Virus record (IMG/VR): IMGVR_UViG_2874933748_000006
DNA: 18,304 bases
Source: a virus
Lineage: Duplodnaviria > Heunggongvirae > Uroviricota > Caudoviricetes
Reading direction: 5' to 3' (one strand)
Shown here: positions 437-2,165 of the stretch, in pieces
Position numbering within the stretch: the first letter of the stretch is position 1
Layout of the letters: every line of letters starts with the position of its first letter
Notes under the pieces: generated by a model
Database searches by the model: none
What the model saw: the letters and a program-made list of their open reading frames with translations, nothing else
What the model was told of the DNA's origin: nothing
Made by a program: the position numbers and the translations under genes

Positions 437-549
437 GTCCCGGTGGTGATGTCTATCTCACACCGATGAACATGACCACGAAACCCTCCGATGGCAGTAA
501 GGCCGGTAAGCAGAAGGATAACGCCAATGCAGACGAAACAACGTCTTGA
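437..549 (+). pseudogene. 3' fragment of a phage head gene (probably portal) cut by the IS4 element
   Basis: An open frame begins directly at the IS4 end with no start codon (PGGDVYLTPMNMTTKPSDGSKAGKQKDNANADETTS, stop 547-549) and overlaps the start of the protease gene, as portal genes do in HK97-type head modules. The portal assignment is inferred from position only. Confidence 0.35.
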
Positions 550-889
550 TGTACCGCTGAGTCTGAAATCTGTCAGTGACTCCGGTGAGTTTGAAGGGTA
601 TGGCTCCGTCTTTGGTGTAAAGGACAGCCACGATGATGTGGTGATGTCCGGGGCATTTGCTGCTTCCCTGCGGGCGTGGAGTGACAGAAAAGCGTTACCT
701 GCGCTGCTCTGGCAGCACCGCATGGATGAACCCATCGGTGTTTACACCGAAATGAAGGAAGACGATGTCGGGCTTTACGTCAGGGGACGGTTGCTTATTG
801 ATGATGATCCCCTCGCAAAACGTGCACATGCACACATGAAGGCCGGTTCGTTAACCGGCCTTTCTATTGGGTACGTCCTGAAAGACTGA
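527..889 (+). pseudogene. HK97-family prohead protease, N-terminal fragment truncated at the IS3-family element
   Basis: ATG at 527 is preceded by AAGGA. The motif GEFEGYGSVFGVKDSHDDVVMSGAFAASL matches the prohead protease N-terminal region. The ORF ends at TGA 887-889, which coincides with the first bases of the IS element; only about 120 aa remain, so the gene is truncated. Confidence 0.7.
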
Positions 890-950
890 GGTAGCCTGAG
901 TTTAACGGACGCTCCTTCCTGAAATAGAATGGCATCAGAAGGAGCTAATA

Positions 951-1250
951 ATGAGCAGAAAAACCCAACGTTACTCTAAAGAGTTCAAAGCCGAAGCTGT
1001 CAGAACGGTTCTTGAAAATCAACTTTCGATCAGTGAAGGCGCTTCCCGATTATCTCTTCCTGAAGGCACTTTAGGACAATGGGTTACCGCCGCCAGAAAA
1101 GGGCTCGGTACTCCTGGTTCCCGCACGGTGGCTGAACTGGAATCTGAAATTCTGCAACTGCGTAAGGCGTTAAATGAAGCTCGCCTTGAGCGAGATATAT
1201 TAAAAAGCAACAGCGTATTTTGCACAGGAGTCGCTGAAAATACGCGTTAA
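951..1250 (+). CDS. IS3-family OrfA (helix-turn-helix protein), copy with altered C-terminus
   Basis: ATG at 951 preceded by GGAG. The N-terminal two thirds are a typical IS3-family OrfA with a leucine-zipper-like segment. The conserved C-terminal motif KATAYFAQESLK is encoded in the +1 frame at 1204-1239 rather than in this frame. Confidence 0.8.
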   Translation: MSRKTQRYSKEFKAEAVRTVLENQLSISEGASRLSLPEGTLGQWVTAARKGLGTPGSRTVAELESEILQLRKALNEARLERDILKSNSVFCTGVAENTR

Positions 1251-1287
1251 TCGAACAATGGCGACAACAATTTCCCATTGAAGCGAT

Positions 1288-2103
1288 GTGTCAGGTATTT
1301 GGTGTATCCGGGGCGGTTATTACAACTGGGTACAGCATGAACCCTCAGACAGAAAACAAAGTGATGAGCGGCTAAAACTGGAGATTAAGGTGGCACATAT
1401 CCGCACTCGCGAAACATATGGAACCCGGCGGCTCCAGACGGAGCTGGCAGAGAATGGCATCATCGTTGGTCGTGACCGACTGGCACGTCTTCGTAAGGAG
1501 CTAAGGCTACGCTGTAAGCAGAAACGCAAGTTCAGAGCGACTACGAACTCGAACCACAATCTGCCAGTTGCGCCAAATCTGCTGAACCAGACGTTCGCTC
1601 CTACAGCACCAAATCAGGTCTGGGTGGCGGACCTGACGTATGTTGCCACACAGGAGGGATGGTTGTACCTCGCTGGCATCAAAGATGTTTATACGTGCGA
1701 AATTGTCGGCTACGCCATGGGAGAGCGCATGACAAAAGAGCTGACAGGTAAAGCCCTGTTTATGGCGCTCAGGAGCCAGCGCCCACCTGCCGGGCTAATC
1801 CACCACTCTGATCGAGGTTCACAGTACTGCGCATACGATTACCGGGTCATACAGGAGCAGTCTGGTCTGAAAACATCAATGTCGCGTAAAGGTAACTGTT
1901 ACGACAACGCTCCGATGGAAAGCTTCTGGGGAACGCTGAAAAATGAGAGCCTGAGCCACTATCGTTTTAATAACCGGGATGAAGCCATCTCAGTAATACG
2001 GGAATACATTGAGATTTTCTACAATCGTCAGCGTCGTCACTCTCGTCTGGGGAATATCTCCCCGGCAGCCTTCAGGGAAAAATATCATCAGATGGCTGCT
2101 TAA
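1288..2103 (+). CDS. IS3-family OrfB (DDE transposase catalytic core); N-terminal region in a different frame, so no OrfAB fusion frame in this copy
   Basis: Catalytic-core motifs are present (WVADLTYV, HHSDRGSQY, SMSRKGNCYDNAPMESFW, RRHS). The conserved OrfB N-terminus KYALIEQWRQQFPIEAMCQVFGVS is encoded at 1238-1309 in another frame and joins this frame only if one base is restored in tccgggg at 1307-1313. Confidence 0.75.
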   Translation: MSGIWCIRGGYYNWVQHEPSDRKQSDERLKLEIKVAHIRTRETYGTRRLQTELAENGIIVGRDRLARLRKELRLRCKQKRKFRATTNSNHNLPVAPNLLNQTFAPTAPNQVWVADLTYVATQEGWLYLAGIKDVYTCEIVGYAMGERMTKELTGKALFMALRSQRPPAGLIHHSDRGSQYCAYDYRVIQEQSGLKTSMSRKGNCYDNAPMESFWGTLKNESLSHYRFNNRDEAISVIREYIEIFYNRQRRHSRLGNISPAAFREKYHQMAA

Positions 2104-2165
2104 AAAAAGAACAAATGGTAGTGTCCGCTATTGCCAGTACACCTCAAGGATAAGGCTAAAAAATC

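Follow-up and report, generated by a model that had tools for sequence, protein, structure and literature searches.

Organization of the locus

The window (the whole stretch of DNA analysed, 18,304 nt) opens inside an IS4 element and continues through the 3' remnant of a portal gene, a truncated prohead protease gene, an IS600 element and the tail genes of a phage with an HK97-type head and a Mu-type contractile tail, two further insertion sequences (both IS1) lying among the tail genes. It closes with ssrA, directly after the last tail-fibre gene, and smpB (Table 1). The window is the right half of a defective phiP27/SfV-type prophage integrated at ssrA in Shigella sonnei. It does not hold the collinear portal-to-fibre structural module of such a phage and is a remnant of one, the tail part being collinear with phiP27/SfV-type relatives at 94-99% identity. 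Integration at a tRNA or tmRNA gene is evident from the position of ssrA, which is the same in the Escherichia coli STEC308 prophage. An ipaH-carrying prophage, an idea raised by the ipaHe gene beside a related prophage, was considered and rejected: the window is without ipaH and the prophage ends at ssrA.

Table 1. Features of the window, with positions, strand and the basis for each assignment.
Feature	Position	Strand	Basis
IS4, right-hand end (window starts inside the element)	1-436	+	Pfam DDE_Tnp_1
GTCCCGGTGGTG, 12-bp target duplication of IS4 in the portal gene (one of two copies)	437-448	.	Window and L005 right flank versus L026 left flank
Portal gene, 3' remnant: last 36 codons (439-546) and stop (547-549)	437-549	+	Annotated in relatives
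Prohead protease, HK97-family, truncated	527-889	+	Pfam Peptidase_S78; alignment with HK97 gp4
IS600 (IS3 family), deletion junction marker	887-2146	+	98-99% identity to annotated IS600; domains
IS600 orfA	951-1250	+	HTH_Tnp_1
IS600 orfB	1288-2103	+	HTH_21, rve, rve_2, rve_3
DUF2635 gene, last 23 nt	2147-2169	+	100% identity to L004 from 10235 (DUF2635 at L004 10096-10257)
Tail sheath, intact, 498 aa	2166-3662	+	Pfam Phage_sheath_1, Phage_sheath_domII, Phage_sheath_1C
Tail tube	3662-4018	+	Pfam Tail_tube
Tail assembly chaperone	4018-4353	+	Pfam Phage_TAC_7
Tape measure	4438-6387	+	Pfam PhageMin_Tail
IS1 in hypothetical gene after tape measure	6565-7331	+	Gap versus L004 and junction sequences
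IS1 inside baseplate J/gp47 gene, opposite orientation	11750-12517	-	Gap versus L004; junction sequences
ssrA (tmRNA), attachment site at prophage right end	17245-17607	-	ARAGORN; same arrangement in STEC308
smpB, after ssrA	17822-18304	-	Pfam SmpB

IS4 and the split portal gene

IS4 was recognized from its ends (TAATGCCGATCAGTTAAGG...CTGACTGGCATTA), its 18-bp terminal inverted repeats and the domains Nterm_IS4 and DDE_Tnp_1; in complete S. sonnei genomes (L005 and L035) the element measures 1426 bp, with ends TAATGCCGATCAG...CTGACTGGCATTA. The window retains the C-terminus of its transposase (ORF 1-423) and a terminal inverted repeat that ends in GGCATTA at 436. IS4 generates target duplications of 11-13 bp. 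The portal remnant beside it overlaps the start of the protease gene and is 99.6-99.8% identical to the 3' ends of genes annotated as 'phage portal protein' in two relatives (L001 and L004). A sequence-only reading of this DNA had placed IS4 in an upstream head gene; the insertion does lie in such a gene, that for the portal, but the other half of the gene no longer adjoins the element. To the left of this IS4 in S. sonnei lies the chromosomal gene bamD, and the portal N-terminus is found, together with the genes for terminase, lysis and replication, at a distance of 44.5 kb, next to a different IS4 copy with a matching 12-bp duplication. The sequence GTCCCGGTGGTG is present to the left of that copy (IS4-b; portal N-terminus, L026) and to the right of the window copy (IS4-a).

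Three IS4 copies carry cyclically permuted flanks (R/P, P/Y and Y/R), and their duplications of 12, 11 and 14 bp are recovered only by pairing flanks of different copies. This permutation fits two nested inversions, the order and orientation in S. sonnei being A-C-inv(B)-D relative to STEC308. IS4 would have inserted in the portal gene, generating the 12-bp duplication, and homologous recombination among the three copies would then have inverted chromosomal segments twice, leaving the portal C-terminus beside bamD and its N-terminus at its distant position. This model predicted a third IS4 copy between yfjF and raiA, which was then found there. A single IS4-IS4 inversion, in which the portal N-terminus, IS4 and raiA would adjoin, was rejected, as the portal N-terminus actually abuts bamE. 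The IS4 insertion in the portal gene is demonstrated by these data, and we infer the inversion path. What is new here is that this IS4 is an originally simple portal insertion with a 12-bp duplication now split over two loci. An IS2 element inside IS4 at the locus is itself a simple insertion.

The truncated protease gene

The protease gene starts at the ATG at 527, rather than at 491 or 526, and retains 120 of the 216 codons of a full-length relative. Its last codon is GAC (884-886) and its stop lies at 887-889, because the TGA is supplied by the first three bases of IS600, as the sequence-only reading had described. The Peptidase_S78 profile (PF04586) was matched with E=6.9e-21 and 75.5 bits (gathering cut-off 21), over profile positions 6-115 of 165 only. 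In an alignment with HK97 gp4 and the full-length relative, His64 (716-718) and the serine of TGLSIGY, Ser113 (863-865), fall in invariant columns opposite His65 and Ser114 of HK97 gp4, which we take to be the HK97 catalytic dyad; this is consistent with the catalytic role previously suspected for the serine, which lies just before the stop. The C-terminal region is missing and the gene for the capsid substrate is absent from its side, so that what remains in S. sonnei, with 120 residues, is a gene fragment and no working member of the family; the 'prohead protease' of this length in S. sonnei annotations is a pseudogene fragment. A search of solved structures by sequence with the protease gave no match. 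The exact truncated protein occurs on 622 contigs, as 'putative prohead protease [Shigella sonnei Ss046]'. The fragment, with its His/Ser dyad, is invariant across the S. sonnei contigs seen, an invariance that carries no weight because S. sonnei is a young clone.

IS600 and its flanks

The element was assigned to IS600 by identity (98-99% to copies annotated 'IS3-like element IS600 family transposase'), length (about 1264 bp) and TG...CA ends (TGAGGTAGCC...GTACACCTCA). The window copy measures 1260 bp, as opposed to 1264 bp in other S. sonnei genomes, including L005, because of four single-base deletions (relative to CP023645). Elements of this family have two overlapping ORFs, HTH followed by DDE/rve, that a programmed -1 frameshift joins. 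In the window copy, the A7 run is reduced to A5 and orfB lies in the +1 frame, both probably through sequencing error; other S. sonnei IS600 copies are annotated with a 385-aa fusion product.

The two flanks of the window copy do not match (GAC at 884-886 on the left, AGG at 2147-2149 on the right), as had been noticed beforehand, whereas control copies at two other S. sonnei loci are each flanked by a perfect 3-bp repeat (GTC/GTC and TCA/TCA). The window copy thus lacks the 3-bp duplication of a simple IS600 insertion; this leaves its identity as IS600 untouched and shows that the copy sits at a junction formed by deletion or recombination. TG stands both at the start of the element and at the point where the intact protease gene continues, so the left breakpoint can be placed only to within 2 nt.

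On the right, the first 139 nt of the DUF2635 gene are deleted; its stop overlaps the ATG of the sheath gene, the ribosome-binding region of which is kept. The sheath ATG, at 2166, had been placed 20 bp beyond the element: the closeness is real, but the spacing is 19 nt (2147-2165), 20 being the position of the A. The exact sheath protein is present on at least 1000 contigs, named from Shigella.

A head and neck interval is missing at IS600

To the left and to the right of the junction alike, the sequence is closest to a prophage of E. coli FDAARGOS_944 (NZ_CP065613; hereafter L004), which is 99.56% identical to window positions 437-886, 100% identical to 2147-2619 and 97-99.8% identical through the tail genes. 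L004 matches the two IS600 flanks collinearly and in one orientation, and the collinearity of the tail module extends up to 17059. The comparison with intact relatives that the sequence-only reading had suggested gave the size of what is missing: the two breakpoints are separated in L004 by 3,511 bp (6724-10234), where seven head and neck genes are annotated. Five relatives, L004 and phiP27 among them, have 3,509-3,512 bp at this place, and a sixth, an SfII-type prophage, has 3,675 bp. What is lost comprises protease codons 121-216, the major capsid protein, the head-tail connector, head closure, a gene for a 174-aa hypothetical protein, the tail terminator and the first part of the DUF2635 gene, which bears out the earlier statement that capsid, head completion, connector and tail completion genes are missing between protease and sheath. 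All six relatives keep the interval, and no lineage in which the protease naturally adjoins the sheath was found among them; together with the absence of a matching duplication, this removes the two observations that would have spoken for a simple insertion. The flanks and the intact relatives show instead an IS600-associated deletion of about 3.5 kb from one continuous prophage, in agreement with the deletion or IS-IS recombination previously proposed. The mismatch of the window flanks, set against the 3-bp duplications of the control copies, argues for deletion rather than insertion.

The order bamD-IS4-protease'-IS600-sheath was found in all 27 and all 28 contigs read in two exact-protein look-ups (protease and sheath, respectively), with the junction identical in every S. 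sonnei contig read; both look-ups gave S. sonnei contigs only. Most draft assemblies place the sheath on a contig of some 4.4 kb, matching the distance from IS600 to IS1. The junction might be an artefact, a false contig join by collapse of the IS600 repeat in a draft assembly. The window IS600 and IS1 do carry single-base homopolymer deletions absent from other S. sonnei genomes, indicating that the source assembly has errors, and the window orfA variant occurs on a single contig; however, the identical junction is present in many independently finished S. sonnei chromosomes (4.6-5.0 Mb), leaving an artefact a negligible probability. Queries of 200 nt over each IS600 junction found no place covering at least 80% of their length in 5,426 complete E. 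coli genomes, Shigella excluded.

The two sides of the junction differ in their affinities, as would be expected if two prophages, one with an SfII-type head module and one with a phiP27-type tail module, had been fused through IS600 copies. SfII-type prophages at thrW match the protease fragment at 99.8% identity but have a sheath that is only 76% identical, and phiP27-type prophages match the sheath at 96-97% but have a protease region that is only 83-91% identical. Nevertheless, in L004 the two modules stand together in a single uninterrupted prophage, at the identities given above, so the head/tail mosaic predates the IS event. Moreover, the IS4 duplication ties the window to the matching portal N-terminus and terminase genes elsewhere in the same genome of S. 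sonnei. We therefore consider such a fusion highly improbable.

Alternatively, the head genes might have been moved rather than lost, by inversions between the window IS600 and distant IS600 copies, much as the IS4 copies at the same locus moved the portal N-terminus. The two IS600 flanks nonetheless derive from a single prophage, share one orientation and lie only 3.5 kb apart in relatives; relocation would require at least two precisely placed events, and deletion only one. The deleted head genes are missing from about 60 kb of S. sonnei sequence that surrounds the two halves of the prophage. In a weak sample of 40 members from each of the seven protein clusters of the deleted genes, none of the capsid, connector, head closure, terminator and DUF2635 proteins was labelled as S. 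sonnei, and a homology search with the L004 capsid gave no member with that label either; by contrast, portal fragments, truncated protease and sheath from S. sonnei were readily seen. Relocation is thus very unlikely, if slightly less so than fusion.

Route to the deletion

The deletion is a result of these comparisons, and we infer the route to it. The protease gene and the DUF2635 gene would each have carried an IS600 copy, both copies pointing the same way, and recombination between the two would have led to loss of the intervening DNA as a circle. The same product, a single IS with non-matching flanks, would also be left by a single IS600 that inserted at one site and, through a transposase-mediated intramolecular event, deleted everything as far as the second breakpoint, for instance by attack of one IS end or of a tandem IS dimer junction on a nearby target. 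Elements of the IS3 family can form adjacent deletions through IS dimers (IS911 and IS2 literature), and no second IS600 insertion site at either position was seen in any genome searched. An intermediate, with IS600 at one site and a 3-bp duplication, was not found, and all the S. sonnei contigs read carry the deletion. Against the single-copy route, the main mode of movement of IS3-family elements, copy-out-paste-in by way of a circle, does not in itself remove flanking DNA. A second nearby IS600 copy is plausible, given that strain-specific copies keep arriving at the locus (L019 and L029), and the neighbouring IS4 copies have demonstrably recombined with each other. In addition, there are hundreds of IS copies in S. 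sonnei, and the documented way in which deletions arise is recombination between homologous ones (PMC7373316). On balance, we lean towards two-copy recombination, and regard deletion by a single IS600 as a serious, if less probable, alternative.

The tail module and the status of the prophage

Both IS1 elements are simple insertions with 9-bp duplications, CGTTAAAAC for the first (6556-6564 and 7332-7340) and GGGGGCGCA for the second. The interrupted baseplate J gene is annotated at 19764-20846 in L004. With IS1 in this gene and in that following the tape measure, the tail module is dead too. The interruption of the baseplate J gene by IS1 also speaks against a reading of the tail genes as those of a tail-like particle. 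Expression of a free protease adopted by the host, or maintenance of the sheath-to-fibre genes as such a particle, is extremely improbable in comparison with neutral wreckage.

The earlier statement that the prophage cannot make capsids is upheld, the capsid, connector and neck genes being absent, the portal split and the protease truncated; with two IS1 insertions in the tail module besides, the prophage can make neither heads nor tails. Taken together, a deletion of about 3.5 kb of head genes at IS600, an IS4 insertion in the portal gene followed by inversions, and an element left without heads or tails very probably constitute the correct joint explanation of the locus.

The ssrA prophage of S. 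sonnei is fully defective, in its head and neck as well as its baseplate, with its two halves 44.5 kb from each other, and it is not to be counted among inducible or intact prophages. Beyond annotation, the locus is of little importance. It is a compact teaching example in which three outcomes of IS activity, simple insertions, a deletion junction and inversions, stand side by side, the inversions being readable from the cyclically permuted target duplications of the three IS4 copies. Its conserved junctions could serve as S. sonnei-specific markers.

Comparison with known phages and prophages

The Stx2e phage phiP27 (NC_003356) shares the gene order HNH, terS (P27 family), terL, portal, protease, capsid, connector and neck genes, and onward through sheath, tube and tape measure to a Mu-like baseplate. 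Its tail module is 94.6% identical to window positions 2147-17016, a stretch that begins 19 nt before the sheath gene and reaches the tail fibres. It differs in its protease region (about 83% identity), in its intact head and neck interval (3,509 bp) and in being free of IS elements. The phiP27-type prophage of STEC308 occupies the same ssrA site, and homology extends through ssrA and smpB to the end of the window.

IS insertion is eroding L004 as well: an IS4-family element lies in its portal gene, 49 bp upstream of the S. sonnei site, and another in its sheath gene. However, all of its head and neck genes are kept, and the elements are ISEc60 rather than IS4 or IS600. It is integrated at a different chromosomal site, beside zinT and with ipaHe alongside, indicating that it is a sister prophage and not a direct ancestor.

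The Shigella serotype-converting phages SfII, SfV and SfI have the same combination of HK97-type head and Mu-type contractile tail. The portal and protease fragment shares 99.8% identity with SfII-type prophages that occupy thrW in E. coli, and SfII itself matches pieces of window positions 437-10965 at about 81%. These phages differ in their tail genes (only 76-81% identity), their thrW/proA site and their gtr genes, none of which were seen in the window.

IS1, IS2, IS4, IS600 and IS911 are expanded in all Shigella species, in which IS elements interrupt genes, and deletions and rearrangements between homologous copies are typical, reducing and rearranging the genome (Hawkey et al. 2020, PMC7373316, which cites Yang et al. 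2005). The IS600-associated deletion and the IS1 insertions in the tail genes are an already-known kind of event, and the locus is a case of ordinary insertion-sequence-driven genome decay, of a kind long known in Shigella. With its simple insertions (two of IS1, IS4 in the portal gene and IS2 in IS4), its deletion (IS600) and its inversions (IS4), it differs in no kind from the decay described in PMC7373316, of which it is one worked example.

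Loss of the head and neck genes at IS600

The protease gene begins at ATG 527 and extends over 120 codons to GAC 884-886, its stop codon (TGA 887-889) being provided, as an earlier sequence-only reading had claimed, by the opening three bases of IS600; in full-length relatives the protein comprises 216 residues. In an alignment, His64 and Ser113 occupied invariant columns with His65 and Ser114 of the HK97 prohead protease gp4, which we take to be the HK97 catalytic residues, consistent with the earlier designation of TGLSIGY, the motif containing Ser113, as the catalytic-serine region. 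A structure search identified no solved structure related to the protease. The exact 120-aa protein, named 'putative prohead protease [Shigella sonnei Ss046]', was present on 622 contigs.

The portal and protease fragment matched 1,067 E. coli records (730 with at least 99% identity), and the sheath about 50 records at 95-99% and more than 1,000 at lower identity. The prophage region of E. coli FDAARGOS_944 (L004) aligned on both sides of IS600: window 437-886 corresponded to L004 6274-6723 (99.56% identity) and window 2147-2619 to L004 10235-10707 (100%), with collinear tail genes beyond (97-99.8%). L004 holds 3,511 bp between the two breakpoints, encompassing the remainder of the protease, the major capsid (408 aa), head-tail connector and head closure genes, a gene for a 174-aa hypothetical protein, the tail terminator gene and the first 139 nt of the DUF2635 gene, which bears out the reported absence of capsid, head completion, connector and tail completion genes. 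The comparison with intact relatives proposed in the sequence-only reading gave an interval of 3,509-3,512 bp in four further relatives, including phage phiP27, and of 3,675 bp in an SfII-type prophage; the protease adjoined the sheath in none of these relatives or L004. The L004 prophage is itself decaying independently: one copy of ISEc60 (IS4 family) has entered its portal gene (L004 5015-6205), at a point 49 bp upstream of where IS4 lies in S. sonnei, and another its sheath gene (10728-11918), with an 11-bp overlap suggestive of a target duplication.

SfII-type prophages resemble the window on the protease side, but their sheaths are only 76% identical, whereas phiP27-type prophages resemble it on the sheath side, with protease regions 83-91% identical. 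A fusion of two prophages at IS600 was nevertheless rejected, because L004 carries both modules, near-identical, in one continuous prophage; the mosaic therefore predates the IS event.

Features of the window and of related loci (L005, L026 and L035, S. sonnei CP023645.1; L019 and L029, other S. sonnei loci)
Feature	Position	Strand	Remarks
IS4, right end	window 1-436		
Phage portal gene, final 36 codons and stop	window 437-549		
HK97-family prohead protease, truncated	window 527-889		
IS600	window 887-2146		
DUF2635 gene, terminal 23 nt	window 2147-2169		
Tail sheath	window 2166-3662		
Tail tube, assembly chaperone, tape measure	window 3662-6387		
Region with Mu-like baseplate and tail-fibre genes (7318-17046)	window 6388-17046		broken by two IS1 copies
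IS1 copies	window 6565-7331 and 11750-12517		opposite orientation
ssrA (tmRNA)	window 17245-17607	minus	ARAGORN; tag ANDENYALAA
smpB	window 17822-18304	minus	Pfam
Single-base deletions, mostly homopolymer runs	window 1201, 1236, 1309 (IS600), 6963 (IS1)		versus finished S. sonnei genome
IS4-a	window 1-448; L005 8485-9910		left flank R, right flank P
IS4-b	L026 11016-13777		left flank P, right flank Y
IS4-c	L035 12798-14223		left flank Y, right flank R
Extra strain-specific IS600	L019 12845-14108		3-bp duplication
Extra strain-specific IS600	L029 19648-20911	minus	3-bp duplication

Origin of the IS600 junction

IS600 has the termini TGAGGTAGCC... and ...GTACACCTCA. Its flanks, GAC and AGG, do not match, as previously noted, and the left breakpoint can be placed only to within two bases, since the IS opens with TG and the intact protease gene also continues with TG. 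The sheath ATG lies 19 nt from the other end, confirming the close spacing reported, although not the figure of 20 bp. Two strain-specific IS600 copies from other S. sonnei loci (L019 and L029; 1264 bp), taken as controls, had perfect 3-bp duplications (GTC/GTC and TCA/TCA), and both IS1 copies of the window were flanked by perfect 9-bp duplications (CGTTAAAAC and GGGGGCGCA), which makes the absence of a duplication here meaningful. With unmatched flanks and an interval present in relatives, the data support an IS-associated deletion or IS-IS recombination rather than simple insertion; neither matching duplications nor a natural protease-sheath adjacency was found for this copy and the relatives examined.

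Relocation of the head genes by inversion, rather than their loss, is unlikely: the two IS600 flanks have the same orientation and lie 3.5 kb apart in relatives, and no capsid or neck protein labelled S. sonnei occurred among the protein clusters, which were thinly sampled. We lean towards homologous recombination between two directly oriented IS600 copies, the excised circle having been lost. New copies demonstrably keep landing in the prophage: the strain-specific insertions, in its tail region and its dnaB, carry 3-bp duplications, which shows continuing IS600 activity at this locus within S. sonnei. The neighbouring IS4 copies have also undergone recombination among themselves, and for Shigella the route described is recombination of homologous IS copies (PMC7373316). 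An adjacent deletion made by the transposase of a single IS600 copy would yield the same product, and a single sequence bears no trace distinguishing the two routes. This second route is somewhat the less probable, as IS3-family elements transpose mainly via a circular copy, without deletion of flanking DNA. Junction searches and the S. sonnei contigs read revealed no genome in an intermediate state.

IS4 copies and the split portal gene

The upstream head gene reported to contain IS4 proved to be the portal gene. The flanks of this copy (...CAGCCCTTGAGCTG on the left, GTCCCGGTGGTG... on the right) are unmatched. The left one was hidden from the sequence-only reading, since the window opens within IS4; in complete S. 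sonnei genomes it corresponds to the terminator region immediately 3' of chromosomal bamD rather than to the portal gene. When the N-terminal part of the L004 portal was used for a homology search, S. sonnei portal fragments emerged, and their genomic context on the same chromosome, CP023645.1, is the left half of the prophage (dnaB, rusA, Q, holin, lysozyme, HNH, small and large terminase subunits and portal N-terminus). At its end the portal N-terminus reads ...GTCCCGGTGGTG, and the left end of a second IS4 copy comes immediately after. This 12-bp duplication is thus divided between two loci 44.5 kb apart, which shows that IS4 originally entered the portal gene by simple insertion. An IS3-family element (L026 12139-13468) in turn interrupts the second IS4; it is taken to be IS2-like from its ORF sizes (121 and 301 aa, or 424 aa when fused).

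A third copy, predicted from gene orientation between yfjF and raiA, was found. The three copies carry, in cyclic permutation, the flanks P (GTCCCGGTGGTG, in the portal gene), Y (GCTCATTGAGC, between yfjF and bamE) and R (CAGCCCTTGAGCTG, between bamD and raiA). With E. coli STEC308 as reference, S. sonnei has the order A-C-inv(B)-D, where A ends at the portal N-terminus, B extends from the portal C-terminus to yfjF, C from bamE to raiA, and D begins at bamD. All flanks and orientations are reproduced by two nested inversions between inverted IS4 copies, although other orders of events are possible; the inversions would have placed the right half of the prophage, with ssrA, smpB, ratA and yfjF, beside bamD, leaving the portal N-terminus 44.5 kb away.

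Distribution in S. sonnei and consequences for the prophage

The order clpB, yfiH, rluD, bamD, IS4, protease fragment, IS600, sheath was found in all contigs read, mostly complete S. sonnei chromosomes (27 from the protease look-up and 28 from the sheath look-up). In most draft assemblies the contig with the sheath was about 4.4 kb long, which equals the span between IS600 and the first IS1. The junction is thus genuine, and an assembly artefact was ruled out. The window IS600 differs from the CP023645 copy by four single-base deletions and two substitutions, with A5 rather than A7 at the frameshift site, and its orfA variant occurs on a single contig in the protein collection; the first IS1 is one G short with respect to the finished genome. 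These differences probably reflect errors of sequencing or assembly in the source of the window.

Mapping was based on the ORF list and sequence, Pfam scans and ARAGORN. As ssrA and smpB directly follow the final tail-fibre gene (window 17245-18304), the window is the right-hand part of the prophage, whose right end lies at the ssrA attachment site; the FDAARGOS_944 prophage has ipaH beside it, whereas no ipaH gene is present at 17245-18304. The first IS1 lies in a hypothetical gene just past the tape measure gene and the second breaks the baseplate J/gp47 gene; the intervening 4.4 kb is still collinear with relatives, so no inversion has occurred between them. With its halves 44.5 kb apart, its portal gene split, its protease cut, these two IS1 insertions and no capsid, connector, head closure or tail terminator genes, the prophage would be expected, from its gene content, to make neither heads nor tails, in line with the predicted inability to make capsids. 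The finding is ordinary: annotations have included the protease fragment ever since the Ss046 genome, and IS-driven deletion and rearrangement are a hallmark of Shigella genomes (PMC7373316).
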